Assembly (NCBI GenBank): GCA_030373045.1
Contig: JAUCPW010000018.1
Coordinates: 17,078-81,077 of the forward strand
DNA from: Candidatus Fermentibacter sp.
GTDB lineage: Bacteria > Fermentibacterota > Fermentibacteria > Fermentibacterales > Fermentibacteraceae
Length of the DNA: 64,000 bases
Direction: 5' to 3'
In this document: positions 17,194-54,856 of the stretch, one piece after another
How positions within the stretch are numbered: position 1 is the first letter of the stretch
How the letters are laid out: every line of letters starts with the position of its first letter
Program-made: the position numbers and the translations under genes
Notes under the pieces: model-generated
The model's database searches: none
What the model was told of the DNA's origin: nothing
Seen by the model: only the letters and a program-made list of their open reading frames with translations

Positions 17194-17267
17194 CCGGCCG
17201 TTTCTGATTAGGATACGAATCCCGGCTCGACCGGGGAACCACAGCCATTCATCGGAGGATCTCTCAT

Positions 17268-18503: not shown

Positions 18504-18513
18504 CGAAGCAGCC

Positions 18514-18999: not shown

Positions 19000-19000
19000 C

Positions 19001-19321: not shown

Positions 19322-19335
19322 CCCCCCCATCCGGT

Positions 19336-19367
19336 CGGTGTCAGAGGAAAAAATGTAAAGTAATCAG
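19336..19367. repeat. left terminal inverted repeat of IS-like element
   Basis: matches reverse complement of 20426-20457 at 31/32 positions. Confidence 0.6.
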
Positions 19368-19400
19368 GGTAATTGATGATCGAGCGAATTTAAATGTGAA

Positions 19401-19420
19401 GGCCGGTCGCATGACCGGCC
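19401..19420. repeat. perfect 8-bp stem hairpin (ggccggtc GCAT gaccggcc) inside the element, upstream of tnpA
   Basis: read directly; lies between the left inverted repeat and the AGGAGG RBS of the transposase gene. Confidence 0.4.
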
Positions 19421-19443
19421 TGTCCTTATAAGGAGGGGCGGGG

Positions 19444-20418: not shown

Positions 20419-20425
20419 CACGAAA

Positions 20426-20457
20426 CTGATTACTTGACATTTTTTCCTCTGACACCG
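20426..20457. repeat. right terminal inverted repeat of IS-like element
   Basis: ctgattacttgacattttttcctctgacaccg. Confidence 0.6.
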
Positions 20458-20471
20458 GACGGAGGCGGGGC

Positions 20472-24759: not shown

Positions 24760-24874
24760 CTGCCCCCTCCAGTATCAGGCCATATATTCGAAGATCGGGC
24801 CGTCCCGCCGCATGGCAGGCATCCGGTCCGGGGGTTTATACTCATACCGGAACCCCTCAAGGAGGCTTGGCTTG

Positions 24875-25579
24875 ATGAGGCCTCTGGCCGTCGTCCCGAC
24901 CTACAACGAGATATCCAACATCAGGCGGCTCATACCCGCCATTCTCGACCTGCCCGGCTCTCCCTGCATCCTCGTCGTCGACGACAGCAGCCCGGACGGC
25001 ACGGGCGACGCAGTCCGCGAATTCGAGCACACAGGCAGGGTCCACCTCCTGACCAGACCCCAGAAGAAGGGTCTCGGGCAGGCCTATGTCGCGGGCTTCC
25101 GCTGGGCGCTCGAGCACGGGTACGATCCCATCATCCAGATGGACGCCGACTTCTCCCACGACCCCGGCAAGGTGCCCGAACTGACGGCGGCCCTGGCCGA
25201 CCACGACTTCGCCCTGGGCTCGCGGTACTGCAGCGGCGTGAACGTGGTCAACTGGCCGCTGTCCAGGCTCCTGCTGTCCTATTTCGCCAACGTCTACACC
25301 CGTCTGATAACCGGCCTGCCCGTCACCGACGCCACCGGCGGATTCAAGGCGTTCAGGAGGGAAGCCCTCGAGAAGCTCGACCTCGACGGCATCCGCTCGG
25401 ACGGCTACTCGTTCCAGATCGAGGTGACTTACAAGCTGGCGAAGGCGGGATGCAGCGTGGTCGAAGTACCCATCATCTTCGTCGACCGCCACGCGGGCAC
25501 CTCCAAGATGACCAGGAGCATCGTCTGGGAGGCGGTCTGGATGGTCTGGCGCCTGAAGTTCCCCTGGCTCTCCCGATGA
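24875..25579 (+). CDS. polyprenol-phosphate glycosyltransferase, GT2 (Ppm1/DPM1/GtrB-like)
   Basis: ATG 24875 with GGAGG 9 nt upstream (track's 24812 start is an extension); MRPLAVVPTYNE…ILVVDDSSPDGTGD…QMDADFSHDP… GT2 DxD pattern of polyprenyl-P-sugar synthases. Confidence 0.7.
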   Translation: MRPLAVVPTYNEISNIRRLIPAILDLPGSPCILVVDDSSPDGTGDAVREFEHTGRVHLLTRPQKKGLGQAYVAGFRWALEHGYDPIIQMDADFSHDPGKVPELTAALADHDFALGSRYCSGVNVVNWPLSRLLLSYFANVYTRLITGLPVTDATGGFKAFRREALEKLDLDGIRSDGYSFQIEVTYKLAKAGCSVVEVPIIFVDRHAGTSKMTRSIVWEAVWMVWRLKFPWLSR

Positions 25580-27813
25580 CCCTGCCGGCCCTGGCCCTCG
25601 TCATCCTCGCTGCATCGCCGGAGGTCGGGGAGTGGAACCTCCTGACGTCCATGACCCATGTGAGATCGGCGCAGGCCACCCCCGACGGCCTCTGGTGCGC
25701 CACGTCGGGCGGGGTCTTCTTCTATTCCTTCTCGGGCGGATTCCAGACCGAGTACCGCTACCCCGGCGACCTTCCCCACTTCGCCGTGGACGACGTCCTC
25801 CTCGACACCCAGGGCAGGCTCTGGTGCGCCACGGAGGACGGCCTGGCCCTGCTCGAGAACGGCGAGTGGACCGTGTACACCTCCTTCGAGGGGATCCCGG
25901 GCTCCGGCGCGGTGACGGATGTGGAGCAGGCCGGGTCCTGGATCTGGGCCGGGTCGGACGGCGGCCTGGCGCGATGGGACGGCACCGGGTTCCTGCATCT
26001 CGACGAGGATCTCACCCAGGGCGGCTTCCCCGCGGATGAAGTCGACGCCCTCGCACAGAGGGACGATTCGCTCTGGATAGCCACCGGGCTCGGAGTCTTC
26101 TCGCTCGATCTGGGCGCGAGCCCGTTCTCGAAGGATTCGTGGCATCTCTGGCCGGGGACGCAGGGCCTGGGGATCGAGGGATTCCTGGCCGCCCCCGACA
26201 GCCTGTACGGATTCGGCACGGGCGGCGTCTTCAGGAGGGATGCCGCCGCATGGACGGTGCTCCTCGACTATTCGGGCTCTGCCGACAGCACGGTGATGGA
26301 TCTCGTCCAGACCCCGGACGGGCTCCTGGCGGCATGCTACGGAGTGCGCCGCAGGATCTCCGGAACCGTCTGGGAGCCCTGGGGAGAGGGCTTCCCCCCC
26401 GGCACCCAGGCCACGTTCCTCGCCGTGGGCGGGGGCTCGGTCTGGTGCGGCGAGGGCTCCCTCCACTGGACCAATACCGACTACGGCAGGGGGCTCGCAC
26501 GGCTCGACTCGGGGATATGGACCACGCTGCAGATCCCGGGGCTGCCCGCGAGGAGCTGCTATCAGCCGGCCTTCGTCGACGGCGTGTTCTACTCCGGCAG
26601 CCACAACGCCGGGCTCATGGCCCGCTACGGCGACACCTGGACGACCTTCGACCAGGAGGACGGCCTCCCCACCACGCTGCGCGTCTACCCGGCCGTCGAG
26701 GCCCCGGGCGGGACGGTATGGACCGCCAGCTACCACTACGGCCTGACCTGGGTCGACGACGGAGGCACGCCAGGAGGTTCCGACGACAGCCTGGTCACAT
26801 TCGTGAGCGACAGCACCGGGATGCCGCCCTCGGTCACCCAGATCGAGTGCCCTCTCCTCAACAACCAGGTAGTCTGCCTGGTGTCGGATGGCGGGACGCT
26901 CTGGATCGGCCACGAGCCCTTCTGGTCCGCTCCCGGCGAACCGAGCGGGATCTCGGTCTGCGTGGGCGACCCCGCCTCGGGCGACCTCCAGTGGGCCACC
27001 TTCGGGGAAGGAGAGGGGCTAGCCTCGGGCAACATCCGCTCCCTTTACAGGCATGGAGCGGGCGGCCTGTGGATCGCATTCTCGGGTGACGCCGGGTGCC
27101 AGTACCTCGACTTCGCCGGCACGCCCCTCGTGCACTCCGACGACACCTGGCTCCCCGCACCGGGCCAGGCGTACGGAGCATCCCAAGGGCTCCCCTCGAA
27201 CCAGGTCTTCTCGTTCTGCGACGACGCCCAGGGGGGCGTCCTCGTCGGGACGGGCGCCGGGCTCGCCCGGTGGGATCCGTCGACCGGCTTCTCCATCGTC
27301 GAAGGCGTTTCCGGGACCATCAAGGCCCTCGCCCTGGACGGCGACGGCACGGCATGGTGCCTGGGCACCTCCGGCATCTCGGCGGTCGATGGAGCCTCGG
27401 TGGCGTACTACTCCGAGTCGAACTCGCCGTTCATCCCCTCCGGCAGGGTCGAGAACGAGTTCGCCCTCTGGGATGAGGAGTCGGGAAGGATGATGCTCTC
27501 CTCGGCCATCGGATTCTGGGTCCTCGATACGGGAGCCGGCTCCGGGGCCTCGAGCGGGCCCTCGTTCTACCCCCAGCCCTTCCTGCCGGGCGACGGGAGC
27601 GTCCTGCGCCTCGCCGGGGCGGGCGAGGGGCCCGTGGAGGTGGGGCTCTACTCGGTGGACGGAGCGTTCATCACGTCGGTGGAGGCCGCCTCCCCGGACG
27701 AATGGTACTGGGACGGGGCTTCCGGGGGTGAAACCGTGGCAGGCGGCATCTATCTGGCATTGATCGTGTCGGAATCGGGAACTGCAGTCTCAAAGCTGGC
27801 GGTAGTCAGATGA
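25576..27813 (+). CDS. secreted beta-propeller repeat protein with C-terminal FlgD-Ig / T9SS-type sorting domain
   Basis: ATG 25576 overlaps upstream stop (ATGA); signal peptide MTLPALALVILAAS; repeated …GLW/LWCAT…G…W… propeller-like repeats; C-terminal FYPQPFLPGDGSVLRL…VGLYSVDGAFI…WYWDGASGGETVAGGIYLALI… CTD. Confidence 0.6.
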   Translation: MTLPALALVILAASPEVGEWNLLTSMTHVRSAQATPDGLWCATSGGVFFYSFSGGFQTEYRYPGDLPHFAVDDVLLDTQGRLWCATEDGLALLENGEWTVYTSFEGIPGSGAVTDVEQAGSWIWAGSDGGLARWDGTGFLHLDEDLTQGGFPADEVDALAQRDDSLWIATGLGVFSLDLGASPFSKDSWHLWPGTQGLGIEGFLAAPDSLYGFGTGGVFRRDAAAWTVLLDYSGSADSTVMDLVQTPDGLLAACYGVRRRISGTVWEPWGEGFPPGTQATFLAVGGGSVWCGEGSLHWTNTDYGRGLARLDSGIWTTLQIPGLPARSCYQPAFVDGVFYSGSHNAGLMARYGDTWTTFDQEDGLPTTLRVYPAVEAPGGTVWTASYHYGLTWVDDGGTPGGSDDSLVTFVSDSTGMPPSVTQIECPLLNNQVVCLVSDGGTLWIGHEPFWSAPGEPSGISVCVGDPASGDLQWATFGEGEGLASGNIRSLYRHGAGGLWIAFSGDAGCQYLDFAGTPLVHSDDTWLPAPGQAYGASQGLPSNQVFSFCDDAQGGVLVGTGAGLARWDPSTGFSIVEGVSGTIKALALDGDGTAWCLGTSGISAVDGASVAYYSESNSPFIPSGRVENEFALWDEESGRMMLSSAIGFWVLDTGAGSGASSGPSFYPQPFLPGDGSVLRLAGAGEGPVEVGLYSVDGAFITSVEAASPDEWYWDGASGGETVAGGIYLALIVSESGTAVSKLAVVR

Positions 27814-28790
27814 TCAGGGCAAGACAGCTCGAGTTCGGTGACAGGGAGAGGTGGGCGGAATTCGTCAGGCTCTCCTCCAACGGCACCCTCTTCCACCTCC
27901 CGGAATTCTTCGACTACCACCCGCCCGGGCGGTTCGACAACCATCACGTGGTCCTCGAGGACGAGGGCGACGGCTCGTTCGTCGCGATCGCCACCGGGGC
28001 CCTGTCCACCGTGAACGGCGAGCGCTGGTTCAGATCGTATCCCGGGGCGTCGTGGGGCGGCCTGGTACTCAACGACGGCGCCGGGCTGGAGACGGTCGAG
28101 GAGTGCGTCGACGCACTGATCGCCCATGCGAGGGGCCTGGGCGCGGCCGGGATGGAGATGACCTCCCCGCCCCTCGTCTATCACAGGCGCCCGTCGAACT
28201 ACCTCGACTTCGCCCTGGTCAGGCGCGGCTTCACGTACCGGAAGAGGGAGCTCACCGCGGTCATCGACCTCGGCAGGATGGGCGACGAGGTGGAGCTGGC
28301 GTTCCGCGACGCCGCCAGGAGGGGAGCCTCCCGGGCCAGGAGGATGGGCATCGAGGTCTTCGAGGAGCCTGACTTCTCCGCCTTCTACCCGGTGCTCGAG
28401 ACGAACCTCCAGGAGCGCCACGGGGTGAGGCCGACGCACACCATCGAGGAGCTCGAGAGGCTGAGAGACCTCCTGGGCCCCGGCATGATCACGCAGTTCG
28501 TGGCGAGGGGCGAGCAGGGCGTCCTGGCCGGGATGGTGATGTTCAGGTGCAACCCCAGGGTCACCCTGGCCTTCTACATCTCGCACGACGCGCGATTCCA
28601 GGCCCTGCGCCCGGTCAACCTGGTGTACCAGGAGGTGATCAGGTGGGCGAGGGACTCGGGCTACAGGCACCTCGACCTCGGCACATTCACCCTCGACATG
28701 CAGGTGAACCGCGGGCTCTGCCGCTTCAAGGAGTCGTTCAGCGCCAGGGGCCATTTCAGGGACACCTTCACGGGCAGGATAGACGGATGA
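27810..28790 (+). CDS. FemAB-family (GNAT-fold) aminoacyl/acyl transferase
   Basis: ATGA-coupled; 326 aa with two-lobed GNAT-like pattern (…LFHLPEFFDYH…; …VLAGMVMFRCNPRVTLAFYISHD…) as in FemAB/Acetyltransf_6-type proteins. Confidence 0.5.
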   Translation: MIRARQLEFGDRERWAEFVRLSSNGTLFHLPEFFDYHPPGRFDNHHVVLEDEGDGSFVAIATGALSTVNGERWFRSYPGASWGGLVLNDGAGLETVEECVDALIAHARGLGAAGMEMTSPPLVYHRRPSNYLDFALVRRGFTYRKRELTAVIDLGRMGDEVELAFRDAARRGASRARRMGIEVFEEPDFSAFYPVLETNLQERHGVRPTHTIEELERLRDLLGPGMITQFVARGEQGVLAGMVMFRCNPRVTLAFYISHDARFQALRPVNLVYQEVIRWARDSGYRHLDLGTFTLDMQVNRGLCRFKESFSARGHFRDTFTGRIDG

Positions 28791-28800
28791 CCGGAGGGGC

Positions 28801-30060
28801 ATGATCCCTCCCGCCTCCCGGTCGCTGCTGATATGGATAGCGCTCACGGGGCTCGTGTTCGGGGGCAGGCTCTGCACTACCGACGTCCTCGCCCAGCTCC
28901 AGGTCGCGCAGTCGTTCACGGGGGCGAGGCCCTTCCTCACCGCCTCCGACGGCTGGACGGTCGAAGGCGTCGACGGGCGGAGCTACGTCCCCCACGGGAT
29001 CGGATACTCCGTCCTCCTGCTGCCTGCCGCCCTGGCGGGCCTCGCCGCCGGGGAGGCAGTGGCCAGGATCTCGACGGCTCTGACGTGTGCAGCCCTTTCC
29101 GCCTGTCTGTTCGCGGTATGGAGGTCGCTGTGCGTGTCCGTGAACGGAGCCCCGCCTCCGGCATGGAAGGCCCTCGCCGTGATGACCGGCGGCATGGCGC
29201 TCGTATATGCCCGGCTTCCCTTCGACGTCACCGCCGCAGCGCTCCTGTGCACGGCGTCGCTCTGTGCGGCTTCATCCGGAAGGGACCGTGCCGCCGGCTT
29301 CCTGATCGGGGCCGCGCTGCTGGTGCGGCTCGACAGCGCGGTGTTCCTCCCTTCGCTCGTGTACGGGTGGAGGCGGGGCGCGAGGCTCGTCCCGGGCGTC
29401 GCATGCGCCCTCGCGCTGATCGCGGCGGCGAACCTGTACCGGTTCGGATCGATTCTTTCGGACGGGCACTCCCAGGACCCGGCCATGGCCCTGGAACCCG
29501 GGCTGGCCGGGCTCGCGGGCCTTCTCGCCAGCCCGGGCAAGGGGCTCGTCTGGTTCGCTCCGGTCGTGCTCCCCGCGGCATCGCGCCACAGGGGGTGGAG
29601 GCTGGCCGCCCCGCTCGCATTCAGCCTCGTCCTCCATTCCATGCTGCACGACTGGACGGGCGGTACGGGATGGGGCCCGAGGTTCCTGTTCCCGGCCCTG
29701 CCGGCGTTCCTCGTCCCGCTTGCGGCTCCGCGCCGGGAGGGGGGCCTCTTCGGGCTGACGGCGGCCTGGGGCGTCATCCTGACAGTCGCCGCCGTCTGGT
29801 CCAATCCATCGGTGATCGAGAGATCCCTCGGAGCCGACGCCTTCGAGGACCCGACGAGGCAGGCCGTGATCTGGCAGCCGTCGAGATCGCCCCTGCTCCA
29901 CTCGGTCTCGTCGATCGGCTCGGGCACCCCGGACCTGTTCTGCCTCGGGGTGCTGGCAGAGTCGCGCACCGCCGGCACGGCCGCCTGCATCATGCAGGGC
30001 GCATGGGTCCTCGGCGCCCTGGCCCTGGCCGGGGCGCGCCGCAGGGGAGGCCCTGGATGA
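28801..30060 (+). CDS. polytopic membrane protein (candidate Wzy-type polymerase or GT-C glycosyltransferase)
   Basis: 419 aa, ~10 hydrophobic segments, no soluble-domain motifs recognised. Confidence 0.4.
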   Translation: MIPPASRSLLIWIALTGLVFGGRLCTTDVLAQLQVAQSFTGARPFLTASDGWTVEGVDGRSYVPHGIGYSVLLLPAALAGLAAGEAVARISTALTCAALSACLFAVWRSLCVSVNGAPPPAWKALAVMTGGMALVYARLPFDVTAAALLCTASLCAASSGRDRAAGFLIGAALLVRLDSAVFLPSLVYGWRRGARLVPGVACALALIAAANLYRFGSILSDGHSQDPAMALEPGLAGLAGLLASPGKGLVWFAPVVLPAASRHRGWRLAAPLAFSLVLHSMLHDWTGGTGWGPRFLFPALPAFLVPLAAPRREGGLFGLTAAWGVILTVAAVWSNPSVIERSLGADAFEDPTRQAVIWQPSRSPLLHSVSSIGSGTPDLFCLGVLAESRTAGTAACIMQGAWVLGALALAGARRRGGPG

Positions 30061-31136
30061 GAATCCTCCACGTCTCTCCCCAGAACTACACCGGGGTGCT
30101 CGCGCTGTATCCGAAGGGGCATCGCGCCCTCGGCCACGAGAGCCGCCTCGTCACGTTCTTCAGGGCGGGCAACAGGTACGAGGAGGACATCTGCCTCGAG
30201 CTGCCCTTCGTGGGCCCCATGGAGTGGCTCTGGAAGGTGAAGAGGCTGGTGGGCGCCGGGAGCATGAGGGTGCCCTTCACCGGAACCAGTGACAGGATCA
30301 CCTGGACGCCGGGCCTGCTCGAAAGGCTCCTGCTCTCGCTCCGGAACGCCGTCTGGACCCCCCGGATAGACAGGGCGCGGAGGCGCTGGTCCCTCGACGA
30401 CTTCGACATCTACCACTACGAGGGAGGCATGAGCTTCTACAGGGACGGCAGGGACGTCACGCGCCTGAAGGCCGCCGGGAAGAGGATCGTGTCGAACTAC
30501 CACGGTCTCGATCTGAGGATGAGGGGGGCGATCAGGCCGGTCTGGGACGCCACCGACGTCCACGTCACGTGCGAGTTCGACCTCTTCAGGAGATATGACG
30601 AGCTGGAGTACATGTTCCTGCCGTTCGACCCCTCGCTCATGCCCCCGCGGGGGCCCGACGGAGGGACCGTGAGGATCTGCCATGCCCCCCGCATACGCGA
30701 GGTGAAGGGGACCGCGACGGTCATCGAGGCGGTCGAGCGTCTCTCCCGCCGGATGCCCGTGGAGCTGGTGCTGATCGAGGGCCTGCCGCACGCCAGGGCG
30801 CTCGCCCTCAAGGCTTCCTGCCACATATCGATAGACCAGATCGCGAGCGGAGAGATGGGTTACGGGGTGAACTCGCTGGAGAGCCTCTCGATGGGGATCC
30901 CCACGGTCACCAACCTGTCGGAGGAGTACAGGGACTTCATACCCGACCACCCGTTCGTCCTGGCGACCCCCGATACCCTCGGAGCGGTCCTCGGGGAGCT
31001 CGTCCTCGATCCCGGCATGAGGTCGAGATATGGTGCCGCCGGCCCGCCCTGGATCGATGCGCGGCACCACTGGCTGAAGGTGGCCCGCGACATTCACGCC
31101 CTCTACCGCAGGATGGGATGGGAGAGCGATGGCTGA
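30057..31136 (+). CDS. glycosyltransferase family 1 (GT-B)
   Basis: ATG 30057 overlapping upstream stop (ATGA); C-terminal …SLSMGIPTVTNLSEE… GT-B sugar-donor binding half. Confidence 0.6.
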   Translation: MRILHVSPQNYTGVLALYPKGHRALGHESRLVTFFRAGNRYEEDICLELPFVGPMEWLWKVKRLVGAGSMRVPFTGTSDRITWTPGLLERLLLSLRNAVWTPRIDRARRRWSLDDFDIYHYEGGMSFYRDGRDVTRLKAAGKRIVSNYHGLDLRMRGAIRPVWDATDVHVTCEFDLFRRYDELEYMFLPFDPSLMPPRGPDGGTVRICHAPRIREVKGTATVIEAVERLSRRMPVELVLIEGLPHARALALKASCHISIDQIASGEMGYGVNSLESLSMGIPTVTNLSEEYRDFIPDHPFVLATPDTLGAVLGELVLDPGMRSRYGAAGPPWIDARHHWLKVARDIHALYRRMGWESDG

Positions 31137-32514
31137 CGGGCTCCGCAGGGAGACGCTGCTGTACGGGCTCTCGACGATCGTGAGCGGCCTCGTGATGCTC
31201 GCTTTCCTGCCCTTCATGTCGGAATGGCTCGATCCGGCGGAGGCGGGCGAGTCGGGCGTCCTCAGGATCACCGCCGAGGTCTTCGCCGGCATCGCGGTGC
31301 TCGGGCTGCCCGTGGGCATCGTCAGGCTCTGGAGCCGGGATGGTGTTTCGAAGCGGGCGGTGGTGATCCGCGCCGCCTCAGGCACCGTCGCGGCGGCGGC
31401 GATCCTGGGTGCGGCCGCATTCCTGCTGTCGCCGTGGCTCAGGTCGGTGCTCAGCATATCGACGCCTTCGGGCCTCCTCCACGCCTGCCTGCTGGGTACC
31501 GGGGCCGCCCTGGTGCAGGTCGCACTCACCTTCCACAGGGCGGACGGCAGGGCGGGGAGCTATTTCTGGGTTCAGGCCGCGCGCGGGCTCCTCTCGCTGG
31601 CCCTGCTGCCCCTCCTCCTTCTCGCGGGGGCCGGAGGGGTCAACTCGTTCCTGGCCGCGAGGTGGGTACCGGCGATGCTGGCGGCCGCGACCGCCATCCT
31701 GGTCGCCCTGCATTTCGCAGGCCCCTCTCCGGGGAGCGCGAAGGGCCTCCTCCGCTACAGCCTGCCCCTGGTGCCCGCGGGGCTGGCGATGCTCGTACTC
31801 TCGTCCGCGGACATGATGATGCTCAGGAGCATGGCCCCCGATCTCCTCGAGAGCGGCTACTACGAATGGTCGTCTTCGGCCTGCATGGCCCTGACGCCGC
31901 TGACCATAGGATTCGGGATGGCCTGGCACAGGAGGGTCTTCGGAGCCGCCGGCCAGCCGGGAGGGCTCGCCAGGCTGGGCAGGCAGGCGCTCGCCTTCAT
32001 CGTCGTGCTCGAGGCCGCCGCCCTGCTGCTGGCCCTGTCCTCGCGCGAGCTCGTGGAGCTGGTCGGAGGCCCGGACTACTCTGGTGCGGCCCGGGTGCTC
32101 CCCATTCTCGCCGGATCGGCCGCCCTGTACGGGGTGTTCATCGTGGCGCAGACCGGCCCTCTGCTCTCGGGCAGGACCTGGCAGGTCTCGATGGCCACGG
32201 TCATAGGCGCATTCGGCAACATCGTCTTCAACTACAGGCTGATACCGCTCTACGGCGCTTCGGGCGCCGCACTGGCCACCCTGGGCACCAATCTCTTCAT
32301 GGCCGCGAGCCTCTTCTGGACTGGCCGCGCATCGTTCCCCGCGAACGCTCCGCTGATCGCGCTCGTCATGGCCGTCCCGGCCGCGATGGGCCCCGTCTCG
32401 ACGCTCTCCCTCCCGCTCAGGGCGACGATCGCAGTCGCGTGGACAGCCGGCTCGGCGCTCCTGTGCCGCGCCCTGCTCCGGGAGGACGCCCGGGAGGAGG
32501 GCGGGGATGCCTGA
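31129..32514 (+). CDS. wzx: Wzx-like oligosaccharide flippase (MOP superfamily)
   Basis: 461 aa, ~12-14 TM, polysaccharide-biosynthesis-protein pattern. Confidence 0.55.
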   Translation: MADGLRRETLLYGLSTIVSGLVMLAFLPFMSEWLDPAEAGESGVLRITAEVFAGIAVLGLPVGIVRLWSRDGVSKRAVVIRAASGTVAAAAILGAAAFLLSPWLRSVLSISTPSGLLHACLLGTGAALVQVALTFHRADGRAGSYFWVQAARGLLSLALLPLLLLAGAGGVNSFLAARWVPAMLAAATAILVALHFAGPSPGSAKGLLRYSLPLVPAGLAMLVLSSADMMMLRSMAPDLLESGYYEWSSSACMALTPLTIGFGMAWHRRVFGAAGQPGGLARLGRQALAFIVVLEAAALLLALSSRELVELVGGPDYSGAARVLPILAGSAALYGVFIVAQTGPLLSGRTWQVSMATVIGAFGNIVFNYRLIPLYGASGAALATLGTNLFMAASLFWTGRASFPANAPLIALVMAVPAAMGPVSTLSLPLRATIAVAWTAGSALLCRALLREDAREEGGDA

Positions 32515-33454
32515 TCAGACGCCAGCAGTATCGGTGCAGGTCCCGGTCAGGAATCCGGGGGCCGCCTTCGCGGCCTTTCTCGGCTCGCTGTCCGTGCAGG
32601 GAGCGGGCGGGACGGAATACGAACTGATCGTGGTCGACGACGGCAGCGACGAACCCGTGGGCGAACGCTTCGACCTGCGCCCGGAGGGCTGCACGAGGAT
32701 GGAACTCGTCAGGCTCCAGGGGCGCGGCAACAGGCCCCGGGCGAGGAACGCGGCCCTCGAGGCCTCGAAGGCGCCGGTGTCGTTCTTCACCGACGCTGAT
32801 CTGAGGCTGGCTCCGGGCGTCCTGGCGGGACACGCCGCCTTCCACGGATCCCGCGGAGGCAGGGCCGTGCTTCGCGGCCTGCGGATCAACGCCTGGTCGG
32901 TCTCCGCCACCCGCTGGCAGAAGTGGTTCGACACGAGGGCGGGCGGAGCCGGAGGCACTCTCTCCGCCATGCCCTGGAGGCACTTCGTAACCGGGAACGC
33001 ATCGGTGCCGAGGGATCTGGCCGTGGAGGCGGGGCTCTTCGACGAGATGATAACGGGCTACGGGGGCGAGGACACCGAGTTCGCATACCGGCTCCACCTC
33101 GCCGGGGCCTCGTTCTTCCGCGACCCGTCCCTGAGGGCGGACCATCTCGACGACGTGTCGGTGCGCAGGCATTCCGCGAAGATGGAGGAGTACGGTTCTA
33201 CAGGCCTGGCGTACACCCTCTCGAAGCACCCCGGGCTCGTCGGGCTGCTGGGAACCGCCTGGGTCCCGGAGCACGCGCGGGGTCCGGCCGGACGCCTGAG
33301 GGCCGCTCTGGTGAAGGCCGCCGTCTCCGACCCCGTCTACCGTTCGATCCTGCGCTTGATGGAGCTCGTGGGCCGTCCGGGCCTCCTGTTCACATATCTA
33401 TCGGTCGGAGCATGTCTTCGCGGCTACACCCGGAGGAGCCATGACGGAACCTGA
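32507..33454 (+). CDS. glycosyltransferase family 2
   Basis: …YELIVVDDGSDEP… and …GYGGEDTEFAYRL… GT2 motifs. Confidence 0.6.
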   Translation: MPDQTPAVSVQVPVRNPGAAFAAFLGSLSVQGAGGTEYELIVVDDGSDEPVGERFDLRPEGCTRMELVRLQGRGNRPRARNAALEASKAPVSFFTDADLRLAPGVLAGHAAFHGSRGGRAVLRGLRINAWSVSATRWQKWFDTRAGGAGGTLSAMPWRHFVTGNASVPRDLAVEAGLFDEMITGYGGEDTEFAYRLHLAGASFFRDPSLRADHLDDVSVRRHSAKMEEYGSTGLAYTLSKHPGLVGLLGTAWVPEHARGPAGRLRAALVKAAVSDPVYRSILRLMELVGRPGLLFTYLSVGACLRGYTRRSHDGT

Positions 33455-34379: not shown

Positions 34380-34381
34380 CC

Positions 34382-37491: not shown

Positions 37492-37499
37492 GAGGCGCG

Positions 37500-38249
37500 A
37501 TGAAGGGAGTCATCCTCGCCGGAGGCCTGGGTACGAGGCTCAGACCCCTCACCAACATCACGAACAAGCATCTGCTCCCCCTGTACGACAAGCCCATGAT
37601 CTTCTACCCGATCAACACTCTCGTCGGTGCCGGGATCACCGAAGTGATGATCGTGACGGGCGGCAACAGCGCGGGAGACTTCCTCAGGCTGCTGGGCGAC
37701 GGCTCCCAGTTCGGTCTCCGCATCCTCAACTACGCCTACCAGGTCCGCGAGGGGGGGATAGCCGAGGCCATCGGGCTGACCAGCGCCTTCGTCGGCGGCG
37801 ACAGGTTCGTGGTCATCCTCGGGGACAACATCCTCGAAGGCTCCATAAGGCCTTATGTCGAGGCCTTCGAGCGTCAGGCCGGAGGGGCGCGCATCCTGCT
37901 GAAGGAGGTGCCCAATCCCAGGGACTACGGAGTCGCCGAACTCGACGGGAGCAGGGTGGTCTCGATCCAGGAGAAGCCGGCCGAACCGCGGAGCAGCCAC
38001 GCCGTGATAGGCGTCTACATGTACGACGGCTTCGCGTTCGACTTCATCGGGAGGCTCAAGCCCTCGGCCCGGGGCGAGCTGGAGGTCACCGACCTCAACA
38101 ATGCCTATCTCGAAAGAGGGCTGCTCCAGGCCGATGTCCTCGAGGGCTGGTGGAGCGATGCCGGGTCGAGCATCGACGGCTACCTCGAGGCCAACGTCAG
38201 GGTGGCCGAACTCTCGCGCAGATCGGCGTGCGGAGGGACGGCGGGATGA
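37500..38249 (+). CDS. sugar-1-phosphate nucleotidyltransferase (RmlA-like, short form)
   Basis: MKGVILAGGLGTRLRPLTNITNKHLLPL…. Confidence 0.7.
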   Translation: MKGVILAGGLGTRLRPLTNITNKHLLPLYDKPMIFYPINTLVGAGITEVMIVTGGNSAGDFLRLLGDGSQFGLRILNYAYQVREGGIAEAIGLTSAFVGGDRFVVILGDNILEGSIRPYVEAFERQAGGARILLKEVPNPRDYGVAELDGSRVVSIQEKPAEPRSSHAVIGVYMYDGFAFDFIGRLKPSARGELEVTDLNNAYLERGLLQADVLEGWWSDAGSSIDGYLEANVRVAELSRRSACGGTAG

Positions 38250-39280
38250 GGATCCTGGTGACGGGAGGCGCCGGCTTCATAGGCAGCAACTTCGTGAGGC
38301 ACCTGGCCTCCGAGCGCCGGGGATGGTCCATCCGCGTCCTGGACAAGCTGACCTATGCGGGCAGGCGCGAGAACCTCGCCGGCCTGGAATCCCCCGGGCC
38401 CGTCGAATTCATGCAGGGTGACATCTGCGATCCCGGCGATGCCCGGAAGGCTGTCGAGGGGTGCTCGGCCGTCGTGAACTTCGCCGCGGAGACCCACGTC
38501 GACCGATCCATCGACGACCCGTCGGCATTCGTGAGAACGGACGTGGAGGGGGTCAGGACCCTGCTCGAAGCCTTCAGGAGTTCCGGAGGCGACCTCTTCC
38601 TGCAGATCTCCACCGACGAGGTGTACGGCAGCGTCGAGGAGGGGAGGTCCTCGGAGGACGACCCGCTCGCGCCCAGGAGCCCCTACGCCGCGTCCAAGGC
38701 TGGCGGGGAGCTTCTCGCGATGAGCTTCTTCCATACCTGGGGGGTCCCGGTCGTGGTGACCCGGGCCTCCAACAACTACGGACCCCGCCAGTATCCCGAG
38801 AAGCTGATCCCCCTGTTCGTGACCAACTGCCTCGAGGGGCTGGAACTGCCTGTCTACGGAGACGGTCTGAACCGGAGGGACTGGCTGCATGTGGAGGATC
38901 ACTGCAGGGCCCTCCTGGCCGTTCTCGAGAGGGGGACCCCCGGCAGGGTCTACAACATCGGGGCCGGCGAGGAGCACACGAACCTCGAAGTCACCCGGGC
39001 CGTGCTCCGGCTGACCGGTACGGATCCCTCCAGGGTGAGGATGATAGAGGACAGGCCCGGGCACGACAGGAGATACGCGCTGGACATCTCCCGGATCGCA
39101 GGCGAACTGGGCTGGTCCCCCGCCGTCGGATTCGAGGAGGGATTGTCGGCCACGGTCGACTGGTACCGCGGGAACCGGGCCTGGTGGGAGGAGATCAAGA
39201 GCGGACGGTTCCGCGAGTACTACCTGTCGATGTACGGGCGGAGGCTCGCTTCGAGCCGCGGCATGGGAGGCGGGTCTTGA
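38246..39280 (+). CDS. rmlB: dTDP-glucose 4,6-dehydratase
   Basis: ATGA-coupled; [20 protein letters not shown]…VLDKLTYAG…[10 protein letters not shown]…. Confidence 0.75.
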
Positions 39281-40212
39281 GGGTTCTCGTGACCGGGGGG
39301 GCCGGCTTCATCGGAAGCCATCTCTGCGACAGGCTGGTGGCCGACGGGCACGACGTCGTGGCTCTGGACAACCTGATCACGGGCAGCACGGACAACATAG
39401 CCCACCTGGCCGGGAACCCGCGCTTCAGGTTCATCCACCACGACGTCACCGAATACATCTTCGTGAGCGGTCCGCTCGACTTCGTCTTCCACCTCGCCTC
39501 TCCGGCGAGCCCCGTGGACTACCTGACTTATCCCATTCAGACCCTCAAGGTAGGCGCCCTGGGCACCCACAAGGCGCTCGGGCTCGCACTCGAGAAGGGG
39601 GCCGGATTCCTGCTCGCCTCCACGAGCGAGGTCTACGGCGATCCGCTCGTGCATCCGCAGTCCGAGGACTACTGGGGCAACGTCAACCCGGTGGGGCCGA
39701 GGGGTGTGTACGACGAGGCCAAGAGGTTCGCCGAAGCTCTGGCCTTCGCGTACATGCGCTACCACGGGCTCGGGGTCAGGATCGCGCGCATCTTCAACAC
39801 CTACGGCCCCAGGATGAGGGCCGACGACGGCCGGGTGGTCCCGGCCTTCATCTGCCAGGCCCTGCGCGGCGAGGATCTGACGGTCTTCGGCGACGGGAGC
39901 CAGACCAGGAGCTTCTGTTACGTTTCCGACACGGTCGACGGCCTGATCAGGCTGGCCCGCGGAGGCGACCCCGGGCCGGTCAACATAGGCAACCCCGACG
40001 AGATGACCGTTCTTCGCTTCGCCGAGACCATAAGGGACATGATAAGCGGGTCGGGGAGGATCGTGTTCGAGCCCCTCCCGGTCGACGACCCCAGGATCAG
40101 GAGACCAGACATATCGCGGGCGGAATCATCCCTCGGGTGGACGCCGCGGGTAGGATTCGACGAGGGCGTCTCCGGTACCATTTCGTACTTCAGGGAGAAG
40201 CTATGCCTCTGA
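39277..40212 (+). CDS. uxs: UDP-glucuronate decarboxylase (UDP-xylose synthase)
   Basis: TTG 39277 with GGAGG 6 nt upstream, overlapping rmlB stop (TTGA); (M)[19 protein letters not shown]…LDNLITGS…IFNTYGPRM…. Confidence 0.7.
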
Positions 40213-41372
40213 ACACGGCCCTCCTCCTCGCCGCCACGGCGACCCTGTCGCTCCCGGCCCAGACGTCGTCGACGGCTGCGGTCCCGTCCCATGCCTTCGA
40301 GCCTGCCGACCGGGATGCGTACATCCTCGGCCCCGGAGACGTGCTCGACGTCATCGTGGAGGGAGGCGCCACCCCGGCCGTCCTGGCCTCGGGCCTGTTC
40401 CCGCAGTCGGTCTGCACGGTTTCCTCCGACGGCGTGCTCGCCGTATCGGGCATCGGGCAGGTCTCCGTCGAGGGCCTGACCATCGCGGAGGCCGAGATCG
40501 AGCTCGCGAGGCTCACCCGCAGCTACTACCCGGGCATGCGGATCGGCATCTCCCTCTCGACGCCCCGCCTCGTGAGGGTGAGGGCGTCAGGTGCGGTCTC
40601 GACACCCGGCATCTATGCCATGTACGCTCTCCAGAGCGTCTCCGACCTCCTCGTCGAGGCCGGCGCCACCGCGGCCTGCTCCAGGACCGGGTGGGTGTTC
40701 TCCGACGGCGACTCGCTCCATTTCGACCTCAGAACCGATCCCGTGACCCACATGCCCGTGTCGGATCCCCTCCTCGCGGGGGGCACGACGGTGATGTTCT
40801 CCACGTGCGAGCATCCCGCCTATGTCGTCAGACCCGCGCAGGAGGCGGTCGAGGGTGTTCCGGCGGTGTCGATGATCCAGGCATGGGAGGTGGAGCGCCC
40901 CCTCGAACTCGCGCTGTTCCTCGAGATGACGGGCGGAGCGGGGGCGGACTTCGACCCCGGGCGTTCGGGGCTGCTGCACGGCGGAACCCTGGCGCCGATC
41001 TGGGGCGTCGACGGGCTGGCGGACCTCTTCGTGGAAGCGGGCGACACCCTGTTCCTCGCCGGAGCGGAGACGAAGGTGACTGTCGCCGGGGCGGTGGCGG
41101 CCCCGGGATTGCATGACTGGATCGCAGGCCTCGCCGCGAGCGACTATGTCGGCCTTTCCGGGGGTGCCCTCCCGGATGCGGCCCTTGGCGGAATGAGGAT
41201 AGTGAGGGACGGAGAGATCATCGCCTCGGGAAGGGATGCCTCCGGTATCGAGCCGTCCCCTGGCGACATGGTCGAAGTCCCGTTCAAATGGGCGACCAGG
41301 AGCATGAGCATGTTCGTGATACTGGGTTCGGTGGTAAGCGCCGCCGCCATAATCATCAACCTCAGCCAATGA
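40203..41372 (+). CDS. wza: Wza-like polysaccharide export protein
   Basis: signal peptide; [13 protein letters not shown] (poly_export motif); SLBB-like repeats; C-terminal TM. Confidence 0.65.
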
Positions 41373-42598
41373 GCACCGAAGACACCAGCCTCGGCGGACT
41401 GGCCGGCGAAGCCCTCCTGCTGATCGCGAGGAGCGTCAGGAAGCTGGCCGTCTTCTGCTTCACGGTGGCCGTCTGCACCGCCGTCTACACCCTGGTGGTC
41501 AAGCCGAGGTTCGAGGCCACGGCCATCGCCTCCGTCCCCGGAGCCTCCTCCTCGGGCGGGCTGTCCGCCCTGACCGGGCTCATTCCCGGCGCTCTGGGAG
41601 GCTCCCTCGGCGACCTCGCCTCGAGCCTCCCGATGGAGATCGGGACTCCGTCGGGCACGGACATCACGGTTGTCGAGGCGGTCCTCTCCTCCCGCCAGGT
41701 GATGGAACGGATCGTGATAAGTTATGACCTGATGCGGAGATGGCACTGCAGGTCGATGGACGACACGCTGAAGAAGCTCTCGAAGAGAGTCAGCGCGACC
41801 CTCACCACCGACGGGCTCTTCGTGGTGACGGCCTCCGGAGAGACCCGCGAGGAGGCTGCCTCCATGGCCTCGGACATCATCACCTTCGCCGACGAGGAAC
41901 TGGCCGTGATGGTGACGAGCCGCGCCCGCAGGGCCAGGATGGAGGCCGAGCACCTGCTGGCGGCCGCGCGCGATTCTCTCGAAGCAGCCCAGGAGAGGCT
42001 CGAGGCGTTCAGGGCCGCGACCGGCCTGATACTCCCGGAGGAACAGGGCGCCGCAATGGTCCAGGCCCTGGGCCAGGTCGAGGCGGAACTCCTTCTGGCG
42101 AGATCTGAGCTGTCCGGGGCTGCCGCCACCCTGTCGCCGGGGAGCCCGGCGGCCAGGGAGCTCGCCGCGCGCGTCGGCTCCCTCGAGAGCGACCTCGCTC
42201 TCAGGCTGGGGGCGGGCGACAGCCTGAGCGTGTTCCCCGCCATGGACAGCCTCCCGGCCGGGATGCGCCAGTACGGGAACCTCTACCTTGACGTGGAGAT
42301 GAAGACCACTCTGGTGCTGATGCTGACTCAGCAGCTCGAGACCCTGAGGATCGAGGAAGCCCGCGAGAGCCCCACCCTCGAGATCGTGCAGCCGCCGGTG
42401 GCGCCCAAGCAGAGGGTCTTCCCGAAACGCACCCTCATGGTCCTCGAGTTCACGGCCATCGCCTTCATCCTCGGCTGCCTCTGGCTGACGGTCGTGGCAT
42501 ACCTTCGCAGGCTCTCGAGAGACCCTGCCAAGGCCGAGTTCTGGAGGCAGTTCTCCGGGGCGATACTCGAGCAGATCCCCGCCCGCCGGAGCCGCTGA
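41369..42598 (+). CDS. wzz: polysaccharide co-polymerase / chain-length determinant (Wzz/PCP family, no kinase domain)
   Basis: ATGA-coupled; N-terminal TM, long coiled-coil periplasmic region, C-terminal TM (LMVLEFTAIAFILGCLWLTVVAYL). Confidence 0.55.
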   Translation: MSTEDTSLGGLAGEALLLIARSVRKLAVFCFTVAVCTAVYTLVVKPRFEATAIASVPGASSSGGLSALTGLIPGALGGSLGDLASSLPMEIGTPSGTDITVVEAVLSSRQVMERIVISYDLMRRWHCRSMDDTLKKLSKRVSATLTTDGLFVVTASGETREEAASMASDIITFADEELAVMVTSRARRARMEAEHLLAAARDSLEAAQERLEAFRAATGLILPEEQGAAMVQALGQVEAELLLARSELSGAAATLSPGSPAARELAARVGSLESDLALRLGAGDSLSVFPAMDSLPAGMRQYGNLYLDVEMKTTLVLMLTQQLETLRIEEARESPTLEIVQPPVAPKQRVFPKRTLMVLEFTAIAFILGCLWLTVVAYLRRLSRDPAKAEFWRQFSGAILEQIPARRSR

Positions 42599-42606
42599 GA
42601 CCCGAG

Positions 42607-43908
42607 GTGATCCAGGAGATCAGGGCGTCCTGGGGGAGGCTCGTGTCCATCGGCCTCCCGGTCGTGTTGAGCCAGGGGACGAACGCCGTCTGGGGCGTGG
42701 TGACGCTCCTCGTCGCGAGGGTCCTCCCCGAGCCGCAGTATGCCGCGTTCTCCCTGGCCAAGACCGTCGAGATCCTGGCCGTCACGATCGGCGGCGGCTT
42801 CGTCATGCAGGCCCTCCTGAAGTATGCCTCCGAAGGCTCCGGCAGGCGTGCCGAGACCGTGAACTCGGCGGCGGCCCTCGCGCTCGCCCTGACGGTGGCG
42901 GGAGCAGGTCTGCTCCTCGCGTGCGGAGGCCTGATACAGTCCTTCTACAGCGAGATCCCGCTCGCCGGCCTGCCCGTGGTCCTCTCGCTCATGGTCCTCT
43001 CGGAGGGCGTCTGCGCCATCCCCCGGAACAACCTCCTCGCCGTGCAGAAGACCCGGCAGGTGATGTGGGGGGACATCACCGGTTTCGCCGTGAGGATCTC
43101 GATAGTCCTCTTCCTGGCGTTCTCTGGCAGGCTCTCCTCCCCGCATCCCATCTTCCTGGCCCAGACCCTCTCGAATGCGGCATGCCTGCTGGTCCTCGTC
43201 CGGGGCGGGGGCAGGTTCTTCGAGAGGGGAGCCCGGGTCGCGCGGGAGAGCCTGACCAGGGTGTGGAGGTTCTCGGTCTACACCCTGGGGACGTCGCTCG
43301 CCGCCTACATCTACTCCTGGACCGACATACTGATGCTCGGGCGGATGGCTCCCGGTGACGTCGCGACATACGGTGTCGCCCGGAGCCTCACCAGTTTCGT
43401 GGCGAGCCTCAACCAGGCCGCGAACATCGTGCTGCTTCCGCTCGCCTCGAGGATGCACACGACCGGACGGACCCCCGGGGTGGCCGCGAGGACCTGGCAG
43501 GGGATCATCCTGGTGGAGGCCGTCCAGCTCCCCTTCATAGCCATTTTCGCGATCTTCCCGAGGCAGATCCTCGATCTCCTGTTCGAGGGCAGGTACAGCG
43601 AAGGCTGGGCGGTCGTGACGGTGCTCGCCCTGCTGAATCTGGTCAAGCCTGTCGGGAGCCTCTTCTCCTCCACCGCATGCGGGCTGGGCAGGCCGGAGTA
43701 CTCCCTACGCTCGGTGCTGCTCACCGCGCTTCTCAACGTCGGCCTCAACGCGCTGCTGATACCCAGGTTCGGAGGGCTGGGGGCCGCCTATGCGACCGTG
43801 GTCTCGATGCTGGCGGGCGGGCTGGCGATCTACCTCGCGGTCACCTCGTATCTGAAGAGGCACACGGACGGATCCGGAGAGGCTGCGGCGGGTTCCGGCG
43901 CGGACTGA
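42607..43908 (+). CDS. second Wzx/MOP-family polysaccharide flippase-like membrane protein
   Basis: GTG start; 433 aa, ~12 TM. Confidence 0.5.
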   Translation: MIQEIRASWGRLVSIGLPVVLSQGTNAVWGVVTLLVARVLPEPQYAAFSLAKTVEILAVTIGGGFVMQALLKYASEGSGRRAETVNSAAALALALTVAGAGLLLACGGLIQSFYSEIPLAGLPVVLSLMVLSEGVCAIPRNNLLAVQKTRQVMWGDITGFAVRISIVLFLAFSGRLSSPHPIFLAQTLSNAACLLVLVRGGGRFFERGARVARESLTRVWRFSVYTLGTSLAAYIYSWTDILMLGRMAPGDVATYGVARSLTSFVASLNQAANIVLLPLASRMHTTGRTPGVAARTWQGIILVEAVQLPFIAIFAIFPRQILDLLFEGRYSEGWAVVTVLALLNLVKPVGSLFSSTACGLGRPEYSLRSVLLTALLNVGLNALLIPRFGGLGAAYATVVSMLAGGLAIYLAVTSYLKRHTDGSGEAAAGSGAD

Positions 43909-54810: not shown

Positions 54811-54856
54811 CGGTCCGGGGGCGCGCGCCCCGGACAGGCCGTCCGGAGTTGGACAA

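Follow-up and report, generated by a model that had tools for sequence, protein, structure and literature searches.

A conserved envelope-glycan operon with embedded PorZ-like and Fem/VimA-family genes in Fermentibacteria, a possible source of an anchoring glycan for type IX secretion cargo

Introduction

What purpose does a block of glycan genes serve when its order stays fixed throughout a phylum and genes for secreted propeller proteins are embedded in it? The question is raised by a stretch of 64,000 nucleotides (nt) from Candidatus Fermentibacter sp. (assembly GCA_030373045.1, contig JAUCPW010000018.1, positions 17,078 to 81,077), hereafter the window, in which positions 24875-43908 hold a run of genes, g1 to g16, that an original prediction made from the letters alone had described as a surface-glycan locus. 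The uncultured phylum Fermentibacteria (Hyd24-12) sits in the Fibrobacteres-Chlorobi-Bacteroidetes (FCB) superphylum. We are highly confident that the run is a conserved envelope-glycan operon, with a 15-gene core fixed across Fermentibacteria and a lineage-specific second flippase. By analogy with Porphyromonas gingivalis, the operon may make, export and present a glycan to which type IX secretion system (T9SS) cargo is anchored, a proposal that we hold to be evenly balanced; the T9SS-anchor role of the glycan, taken by itself, we place slightly below an even chance.

To our knowledge, the mechanism that fixes T9SS cargo on the cell surface is understood for no more than a few members of the Bacteroidota, whose genes for it are dispersed around the genome. 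In the window, three candidate parts, namely a PorZ-like adaptor, a VimA-like amine enzyme and genes for glycan synthesis and export, occur in one conserved operon near candidate sortases. A literature search found no description of an operon uniting PorZ-like, VimA-like, DPM1/GT-C (glycosyltransferase fold C) and Wza/polysaccharide co-polymerase (PCP) genes beside PorU-like sortases, and a search for Fermentibacteria together with T9SS found no paper.

A core of fifteen genes in fixed order

The order from g1 to g15 is identical in five other Fermentibacteria loci: L001, L002, L003 (Aegiribacteria), L009 (Hyd24-12 UBA6080) and L091. These loci have 49-61% GC, 33-85% protein identity and similarly tight junctions. 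Identity varies along the block, with g14 (33-42%) and g10 (37-44%) at the low end and g13 (72-76%) and g1 (73-85%) at the high end. The last gene, g16, is found in the nearer relative L091 (53% identity) and is absent after g15 in L001, L002, L003 and L009; among the relatives only L091 has it, and the core is therefore set at 15 genes. The Omp85-like gene on the opposite strand upstream of g1 is kept in L009 (32% identity). Capsule and O-antigen loci normally vary between strains. Because the order here has stayed fixed over deep divergence, the block is a core envelope operon and not a variable capsule or O-antigen locus. The locus of the original prediction thus stands as a co-directional block for glycan synthesis and export, though not as one of the variable type.

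Translation of the intervals implied by the earlier list of junctions filled 24875-43908 with 16 uninterrupted forward-strand open reading frames (ORFs; Table 1). All of them have a GC content at third codon positions of 0.84-0.94, the codon-position signature of real genes in this genome of 68% GC. The earlier figure of 17 genes was a miscount, since 15 junctions delimit 16 genes and the earlier list of contents itself sums to 16. The junction list was exact, and all 15 distances were recovered. From g1 to g16 they are -4, -4, +10, -4, -8, -8, -14, +2, -4, +8, -4, -4 (TTGA), -10, -4 and +8 nt, that is, seven overlaps of 4 nt, four of 8-14 nt and four gaps of 2-10 nt. Start codons are backed by ortholog lengths for most genes, including the TTG of g13, and ortholog alignments begin at residue 1-5 for g1, g3, g5, g10, g11, g12 and g13; for g14 and g15 the choice of start is less secure.

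Tight packing is not special to this block, because 13 of the 19 co-directional junctions in the rest of the window are also at most 10 nt long (11 overlapping). Stop codons that overlap the next start codon are habitual in this genome, so that the near-complete coupling claimed earlier is real as far as the junctions go but largely a genome-wide trait. Only the unbroken run of 15 stands out, with a chance of ~0.68^15 = ~0.003 by rough arithmetic, and this is the pattern expected of one long operon.

Internal promoters or terminators, which had been named as evidence that would split the locus, were scanned for and did not exceed shuffled expectation. No sigma-70-like promoter was seen inside the block against 0.9 expected from shuffling, with a consensus that may not suit FCB-group bacteria, and three terminator-like hairpins occurred against 4.0 expected. 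No riboswitch, other RNA or tRNA was found in the window. The 3' boundary is a convergent reverse-strand gene (43942-44937) that follows g16 after a 33-nt gap. Co-directional genes, junctions of at most 10 nt, no excess of terminators and an order kept in relatives all point to a single polycistronic operon.

Table 1. Genes of the operon, its 5' surroundings and the PorU-like genes, with positions in the window
Feature	Description	Position	Strand	Evidence
g1	Soluble GT2 polyprenyl-phosphate-sugar synthase, DPM1/Ppm1-like, 234 amino acids (aa)	24875..25579	+	Glycos_transf_2 99 bits; no hydrophobic segment
g2	PorZ-like paralogue A, 745 aa; signal peptide, Reg_prop propellers, T9SS-type C-terminal domain	25576..27813	+	Reg_prop 58.5 bits
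g3	Fem/VimA-family (Acetyltransf_6) transferase, probably aminoacyl-tRNA dependent	27810..28790	+	Acetyltransf_6 43.5, FemAB 22.3 bits
g4	GT-C fold membrane glycosyltransferase, 419 aa, ArnT/PimE/ALG9-like	28801..30060	+	AlphaFold model, predicted local distance difference test (pLDDT) 93.5
g5	Divergent GT-B (GT4-like) glycosyltransferase, 359 aa	30057..31136	+	Weak Glyco_transf_4, Glycos_transf_1 matches
g6	Multi-spanning MOP/Wzx-type flippase candidate, 461 aa, ~10 hydrophobic segments	31129..32514	+	HfsF 29.7 bits; hydropathy
g7	GT2 glycosyltransferase, EpsD-like	32507..33454	+	Glycos_transf_2 39.7 bits; EpsD 93.3 bits, under cut-off
g8	MurB, UDP-N-acetylenolpyruvoylglucosamine reductase	33441..34379	+	NF010480 269.8 vs 259 bits; TIGR00179 191.9 vs 144.5
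g9	Extended short-chain dehydrogenase/reductase (SDR), Rmd-like 4-keto-6-deoxyhexose reductase	34382..35332	+	GDP-6-deoxy-D-lyxo-4-hexulose reductase 2PK3 E 1.9e-44; 6X3B next
g10	PorZ-like paralogue B, 720 aa; signal peptide, two seven-bladed propellers and T9SS type A C-terminal domain	35329..37491	+	
g11	Sugar-1-phosphate nucleotidylyltransferase, RmlA-like, 249 aa	37500..38249	+	NTP_transferase 168 bits
g12	RmlB, dTDP-glucose 4,6-dehydratase	38246..39280	+	TIGR01181 418.7 vs 365.1 bits
g13	UDP-glucuronate decarboxylase (UDP-xylose synthase), TTG start	39277..40212	+	Human UXS1 E 1.7e-113, 382 bits, full length
g14	Wza-type outer-membrane polysaccharide export protein; signal peptide, C-terminal hydrophobic helix	40203..41372	+	Poly_export 43.6 vs 28; SLBB 24.8 bits
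g15	Candidate PCP, Wzz/KpsE-like, two transmembrane segments, no kinase domain	41369..42598	+	Weak matches
g16	Wzx/MOP flippase, lineage-specific, outside the 15-gene core	42607..43908	+	Polysacc_synt_3 51.1 vs 23; Polysacc_synt 44.3, above cut-off
PorU-like 1	PorU-like T9SS sortase, 1260 aa, Peptidase_C25 and C-terminal domain	51028..54810	+	Peptidase_C25 195 bits; NF033707 T9SS_sortase 358 bits
PorU-like 2	PorU-like T9SS sortase, 1248 aa	54857..58603	+	Peptidase_C25 209 bits; NF033707 364.5 bits
5' neighbour	Divergent Omp85-like outer-membrane protein, 348 aa, outside the operon	23713..24759	-	NCBIfam Omp85_fam 58.4 bits, cut-off 200 not reached
5' intergenic region	Divergent, 115 nt, only sizeable 5' non-coding gap, presumed promoter region	24760..24874	.	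AAGGAGG 13 nt before g1 ATG

Two PorZ-like proteins at fixed positions

The two "secreted cargo-type" proteins, g2 and g10, had been taken for passengers of the locus; they proved to be conserved PorZ-like paralogues at fixed positions, related over their full length (26% identity, E 1e-48) and each bearing Reg_prop propellers and a C-terminal domain of T9SS type A. PorZ was the sole NCBIfam equivalog model matched by either protein (33.5 bits for g2 and 79.7 for g10), and the best sequence match of g10 in the PDB was PorZ itself (5M11, E 1.5e-15). A structural model of g10 built from 26 homologues (pLDDT 90, predicted template modelling score 0.89) had 5M11 as its top Foldseek match over the full length, with template modelling (TM) scores of 0.67/0.65, whereas the sensor propellers from hybrid two-component systems of Bacteroides, though related in sequence, score no higher than ~0.35 against the same model. 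The profile of the g10 family, which takes in one true PorZ-domain protein (P0075), aligned with 5M11 in one stretch, 44-724 against 37-758. The g2 family profile matched 5M11 as well (E 1.7e-24, covering 493-758), and the C-terminal domain of g2 aligns with those of g10 and of the PorU-like proteins. The public annotation of the g10 ortholog reads only "T9SS type A sorting domain-containing protein".

On sequence and model, both proteins have PorZ architecture, with two seven-bladed propellers and a C-terminal beta-sandwich T9SS domain in ~750 aa, and yet they fall outside the curated family. In P. gingivalis, anionic lipopolysaccharide (A-LPS) is bound by PorZ, which hands it over to PorU, the sortase (PMC8545088).

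The Fem/VimA-family transferase and its neighbours

The call of a FemAB-like transferase for g3 was upheld. An Acetyltransf_6/FemAB-type GNAT domain lies over its C-terminal half (PF13480, 43.5 vs 22 bits), and its best curated match is TIGR03019 (38.5 bits, over 14-310 of 326 residues), with FemX at 22.7 bits. Its best solved relatives are the aminoacyl-tRNA-dependent peptide synthases 9wqy and 9wqw, followed by FemX, and the protein is 61-64% identical across Fermentibacteria. VimA also matches TIGR03019, and in P. gingivalis it is the enzyme that provides the linking sugar with its Ser or Gly amine (PMC7468200).

The adjacency of g3 and g5 is kept in Edwardsbacteria, Latescibacteria and on a third contig, where the homologue of g5 comes directly after that of g3. 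In Candidatus Edwardsbacteria (L006, 10001-14569) and on a related contig (L008, 10001-14163), the adjacent homologues are 46% (g3) and 36-37% (g5) identical to those described here, and genes for an Amidase_3 (MurNAc-L-Ala amidase; MurNAc, N-acetylmuramic acid) and an Asp/Glu racemase follow the pair.

The propeller neighbourhood outside the phylum

The combination of a DPM1-like GT2, a PorZ-like and a Fem-like gene recurs in a lineage of 70% GC (L004, L089 and L090). The L004-type order is GT4, YfhO-type GT-C, g1-like GT2 (55% identical), GT2 with CoA_binding_3, PorZ-like, FemAB-like and GT4, and the PorZ-like protein (729-730 aa) has the same C-terminal domain. In L004 itself, the GT2/PorZ-like/Fem-like/GT4 block (15760-22193) is found directly upstream of the dcw cluster (mraZ, rsmH, PBP, murE, murF). 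No direct homology of g3 or g5 to the L004-type Fem-like and GT4 genes was detected by BLASTP. On a contig from another lineage (that of P0088), the genes after that for a propeller protein with the C-terminal domain encode a PglF-like dehydratase and a FemAB-like protein.

A scan of metagenome contigs with an alignment of non-Fermentibacteria propellers yielded 80 loci, 17 of them double propellers whose match reaches the C-terminal domain and 63 of sensor-kinase type. By hidden Markov model (HMM), a Fem-like ORF lay directly or one gene downstream of the propeller in seven loci, all of the C-terminal-domain type; in the 650 kb covered by the sensor-type loci, the HMM found none beside a propeller (0/63). 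Under our own grouping, the contrast of 7/8 usable C-terminal-domain loci with 0/63 has a Fisher p of ~6e-9, and the independent lineages behind it number ~4, not 7, as most positives belong to one clade (64-75% identical to P0087). Five loci, every one belonging to the C-terminal-domain type as well, have a g1-like GT2 (55-59% identity) upstream of their propeller.

On a contig of 42% GC (L005, 8288-12259), a bona fide PorZ gene, recognised by Pfam PorZ_N_b_propeller, stands head-to-head with a PMT_2-family GT-C gene. This pairing echoes the propeller/GT-C link of the operon.

PorU-like sortases and candidate cargo

The two PorU-like sortases are encoded ~7 kb downstream of the operon as tandem paralogues that are 41% identical. 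Their matches to NF033707 are near full length (7-1076/1080 of 1095) and under the 420-bit cut-off. With PorU-like and PorZ-like genes both present in duplicate, there may be two attachment complexes. A 390-aa tetratricopeptide repeat protein (58641-59813) comes after the pair.

Upstream of the operon, 8126-10333 encodes a gingipain-like cysteine peptidase with Propeptide_C25, Peptidase_C25, a C25 Ig-like domain and a T9SS C-terminal sorting domain. Judged by these domains, it is likely a T9SS cargo protein in a non-Bacteroidota genome. All five proteins in the window with a T9SS-type C-terminal domain share one domain class.

A lipid-linked sugar synthase and its membrane partner

The original prediction of a polyprenyl-phosphate-sugar synthase and of GT2 transferases was borne out. 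The closest solved relative of g1 is dolichol-P-mannose synthase (5MLZ, E 3.4e-29), with ArnC next, and sub-threshold matches to the AglJ, PpgS and ArnC models were obtained. Both g1 and g7 match Glycos_transf_2. For g5, which is 64-68% identical across Fermentibacteria, the assignment comes from weak GT4-type matches, and the comparison with PimB' gave an E of about 1 only.

The "polytopic membrane protein", g4, is indeed multi-spanning; left unclassified before, it can now be read as a GT-C glycosyltransferase that pairs with g1. Its model matched ArnT best (5F15, E 1.8e-5, TM 0.54), followed by PimE, ALG9, AftB and AglB. Every significant fold match was GT-C, which rules out Wzy or WaaL as an identity for g4. 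It has no Pfam match and matches no curated GT-C family model, and a profile of its homologues found no match among PDB sequences; distant homologues bear PMT, PMT_2 or GT87 domains. Among 27 homologues, residue D28, which follows the first helix, hardly varies, and it fits the acidic residue in the first external loop of GT-C enzymes. We infer that g4 is the membrane partner that uses the lipid-linked sugar from g1. Similar pairs are Ppm1/Pmt, ArnC/ArnT and PimE with polyprenyl-P-mannose, which g1 (dolichol-P-mannose synthase/ArnC-like) and g4 (GT-C, with ArnT and PimE among its best matches) resemble. ArnC and GtrB have a membrane anchor, whereas g1 has none, and g4 differs from the partners in these pairs in matching no curated GT-C family model.

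A pair of this kind might instead serve protein glycosylation, with g1 and g4 O-glycosylating secreted proteins in the periplasm and g2 and g10 as the substrates or as glycan-held parts of a surface layer. The closeness of g1 to dolichol-P-mannose synthase fits this, and so do the PMT or PMT_2 domains in distant homologues of g4, which are named GT39, the g1-like GT2 directly upstream of a propeller gene in at least four lineages and the PMT_2 gene beside the bona fide PorZ gene of L005. However, ArnT and PimE, the best folds for g4, act on lipid A and on a glycolipid acceptor, respectively, and Pmt structures rank much lower. Protein glycosylation would also leave the Wza, PCP, flippase and Fem-like genes and the nucleotide-sugar set unexplained, and we regard it as unlikely.

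Sugar supply and the embedded MurB

Profile searches, which had been expected to decide whether the key sugar-nucleotide enzymes needed reassigning, were run and kept the MurB, RmlB, Rmd-like and UDP-xylose synthase calls (Table 1). A GDP-mannose 4,6-dehydratase is also encoded within the window, at 2-826. In the predicted RmlA/RmlB pair, g12 scores above the RmlB cut-off, but g11 is RmlA-like only, being under both curated RmlA cut-offs (230 vs 320 and 226 vs 360 bits). Since RmlC and RmlD are also absent, L-rhamnose is not predicted. Ortholog alignments of g13 begin at residue 1. By sequence, the operon is predicted to supply dTDP-4-keto-6-deoxyhexose (g11 and g12), a 6-deoxyhexose (g9), UDP-xylose (g13) and UDP-MurNAc (g8).

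The MurB gene occupies the same operon position in all six genomes compared. The presence of g8 does not call for the muramic-acid-like lactyl sugar suggested before; this gene may be no more than a housekeeping MurB. A scan of contigs anchored on MurB by exact peptide patterns gave 80 loci, with L009 as the sole Fermentibacteria and 79 unrelated MurB genes, mostly from Firmicutes.

The embedded MurB, together with the neighbours of the g3-g5 pair in Edwardsbacteria, hints at a link to peptidoglycan, and the Fem-like/GT-B pair may act on a muropeptide-like substrate. On a rival reading, the block would be a peptidoglycan-linked operon of mixed housekeeping envelope genes: g8 would be the sole MurB, g3 a FemX-like enzyme branching a muropeptide or a MurNAc-containing precursor, and the other genes would make a wall-associated polymer, with no specific T9SS link. 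Such an operon would accommodate a g8 that passes the MurB cut-off and is fixed in place, the matches of g3 to FemX models and to the FemX structure, the Amidase_3 and glutamate racemase genes next to g3-g5 homologues in Edwardsbacteria and the dcw cluster that abuts the L004 locus. It accords poorly with the higher score of g3 against TIGR03019 than against FemX, and it gives no reason for the pair of conserved PorZ-like genes or for the specific placing of Fem-like genes beside propellers; its probability appears low.

Export genes and comparison with capsule and exopolysaccharide loci

Two flippases had been predicted. The later one, g16, is above Pfam cut-offs, and g6 is a probable second flippase, whose ortholog in L002 matches Polysacc_synt. 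Wza and Wzz had been named as well: g14 passes the Poly_export cut-off, and g15 is putatively assigned as a PCP from weak GNVR and Wzz matches and from two hydrophobic segments that fit PCP topology. All scores of g15 are under cut-off (GNVR 23.4 vs 27.7, Wzz 16.4 vs 25.5 and BexC/KpsE 51 vs 437 bits). As stated earlier, no priming phosphoglycosyltransferase (WbaP/WecA type) or Wzy is recognisable among the scanned ORFs of the window.

Group 1-type capsule and exopolysaccharide (EPS) loci of the Wzx/Wzy class (Wza-Wzb-Wzc) resemble the operon in having a Wza-type exporter, one or more Wzx flippases, nucleotide-sugar genes and transferases in one direction; a PCP with two transmembrane segments, for which g15 is the candidate here, would be a further likeness. 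They differ in their Wzy, priming phosphoglycosyltransferase, Wzc kinase and Wzb phosphatase, none of which was recognised here. They are also hypervariable, whereas the present order is fixed across the phylum and MurB, Fem-like and two secreted propeller genes are embedded in it. The operon could still be an ordinary locus of this class that makes a heteropolysaccharide of deoxyhexose and xylose, with the propellers as unrelated T9SS cargo. That would suit its Wza, candidate PCP, Wzx flippase, nucleotide-sugar enzymes and GT2/GT4-like transferases, and also the failure of PorZ and VimA membership at curated cut-offs. It is difficult to reconcile with an order that is kept, both propeller genes included, at 33-85% identity and 49-68% GC, with the lack of a recognised Wzy or priming transferase, and with the link of propeller, DPM1-like GT2 and Fem-like genes, which recurs in other lineages and never beside sensor-type propellers. 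We therefore find an ordinary EPS locus improbable.

XrtA/PEP-CTERM exosortase EPS loci also resemble the operon: they combine a FemAB-family protein of TIGR03019 with an EpsE-type exporter and a chain-length determinant, and the weak best matches of g3, g14 and g15 are models from these loci. A Fem-like enzyme that builds the acceptor for a protein-sorting transpeptidase has already been proposed for them (PMC7468200). In contrast to these loci, the window encodes neither exosortase nor PEP-CTERM proteins; cargo here carries the T9SS C-terminal domain as its sorting signal, and a PorU-like protein is the candidate for the transpeptidase.

A proposed route for anchoring T9SS cargo

In the pathway that we propose, enzyme identities come from homology, and conservation and gene association are observed; from these we infer the order of steps, the substrates and the connection with cargo attachment. 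A lipid-linked glycan would be started by a priming transferase from elsewhere in the genome, and g5 (GT-B) and g7 (GT2) would build it at the cytoplasmic face from 6-deoxyhexose, xylose and possibly other sugars. The addition of an amino acid by g3 would leave a free amine on the glycan. After flipping by g6, and in this lineage also by g16, the glycan would be decorated at the periplasmic face by g4 with sugar from the polyprenyl phosphate donor made by g1, and the Wza-type g14 and the PCP g15 would carry it to the cell surface. The PorZ-like proteins, themselves exported via their T9SS C-terminal domains, would bind the glycan there and pass it to the PorU-like sortases at 51028-58603. The sortases would then remove the C-terminal domain of the cargo and join the new C terminus to the glycan amine.

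Such a pathway would be the functional counterpart of the A-LPS/Wbp-Vim/PorZ-PorU attachment of P. gingivalis, with another glycan and with Wza/PCP export. Both systems have a surface protein with two propellers and a C-terminal domain, a C25-family sortase (PorU in P. gingivalis, PorU-like candidates here), a Fem/TIGR03019-family transferase next to a GT4-like transferase and cargo with type A C-terminal domains. In P. gingivalis, VimF lies near VimA, in parallel with g5 beside g3. The attachment system there comprises PorZ, PorU, PorV and PorQ, A-LPS and the Wbp/Vim linking-sugar enzymes (VimA, VimE and VimF). The present genome differs in belonging to a non-Bacteroidota phylum, in having two PorZ-like and two PorU-like paralogues and in carrying the PorZ-like genes inside the glycan operon, whereas the genes of P. 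gingivalis are scattered. VimE, Wbp and WbpS enzymes, present in P. gingivalis, were not recognised here; its O-antigen ligase/LPS route contrasts with the Wza and PCP export components, and the 6-deoxyhexose/xylose sugar set and the DPM1-like plus GT-C step are further differences.

Several observations weigh against an anchoring role. Curated cut-offs are not reached for PorZ, for the VimA family or for PorU: g2 and g10 are far below the 260 bits of NF052228 and, at E <= 0.01, have no match to Pfam PF21544 (PorZ_N_b_propeller), and g3 is far under the 260-bit cut-off of TIGR03019, so that its link to VimA runs through the family only. No VimE-type/CE4 deacetylase, Wbp enzyme or aminotransferase was found in the operon or the window that would point to an amino sugar for g3 to acylate. 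PorK/L/M/N, Sov, PorV and PorQ/PorP were not recognised in the window, even at E <= 1. Downstream of the operon in L001-L003, the flanking sequence showed no PorU pair, and the linkage of the pair to the operon may be particular to this genome. Outside the phylum, the L004-type Fem-like and GT4 genes are family-level analogues of g3 and g5 only, Bacteroidota-type PorZ loci have no Fem-like neighbour, and the g3-g5 pair of Edwardsbacteria and Latescibacteria has no adjacent propeller and is located beside the MurNAc-L-Ala amidase and glutamate racemase genes. An anchoring role also does not account for the embedded MurB. Finally, all the evidence comes from metagenome-assembled sequence, with functions assigned by homology.

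The gene neighbourhood gives independent support to the PorZ glycan-shuttle and VimA linking-sugar models. It also names a concrete gene set for testing and raises the prospect of an anchor other than LPS. Together, DPM1-like GT2, PorZ-like and Fem-like genes could mark T9SS attachment modules outside Bacteroidota. More speculatively, Fermentibacteria and several uncultured high-GC lineages might anchor T9SS cargo to a Wza/PCP-exported glycan in place of LPS, with a Fem-type amine, operon-encoded PorZ-like adaptors and two parallel complexes; bolder still, the acceptor might be a MurNAc-containing, muropeptide-like unit, a version suggested by the embedded MurB and by the peptidoglycan-gene neighbours of g3 homologues. 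We hold this reading as a whole to be doubtful. With a MurNAc-containing acceptor, there would be a parallel to Gram-positive sortases, which anchor proteins to Fem-built cross-bridges on lipid II.

Other genes in the window

An APH-family kinase gene (22799-23716, forward strand) is located upstream of the locus and separated from it by the Omp85-like gene (23713-24759). AmgK-type MurNAc kinases belong to the APH family, and a link of this kinase to the MurB and nucleotidylyltransferase genes is conceivable.

The GDP-mannose 4,6-dehydratase gene, cut by the window edge, opens a run of seven genes (2-5952) joined by 4- or 17-nt overlaps. It continues with a LarC-like nickel-insertion protein, a redoxin-like protein, a radical SAM protein, a cupin, an AIR-carboxylase (LarB-like) and an SDR epimerase, thus mixing sugar-nucleotide genes with genes resembling those for the nickel-pincer cofactor.

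On the reverse strand, 10388-16505 encodes an AddAB-like pair, a UvrD-type helicase (1038 aa) and a PD-(D/E)XK nuclease protein (1018 aa). Their ORFs overlap by 56 nt, and the start of the downstream gene is probably mis-set.

The sole long gap between co-directional genes in the window (19322-20471, 1150 nt) has a weak codon-position GC signal. It contains a forward-strand ORF (19444-20418) for a 324-aa IS200-like Y1 transposase (Y1_Tnp 52.6 bits) whose C terminus shows a weak helix-turn-helix of DnaA type. The element may be a REP-associated tyrosine transposase or an insertion sequence remnant.

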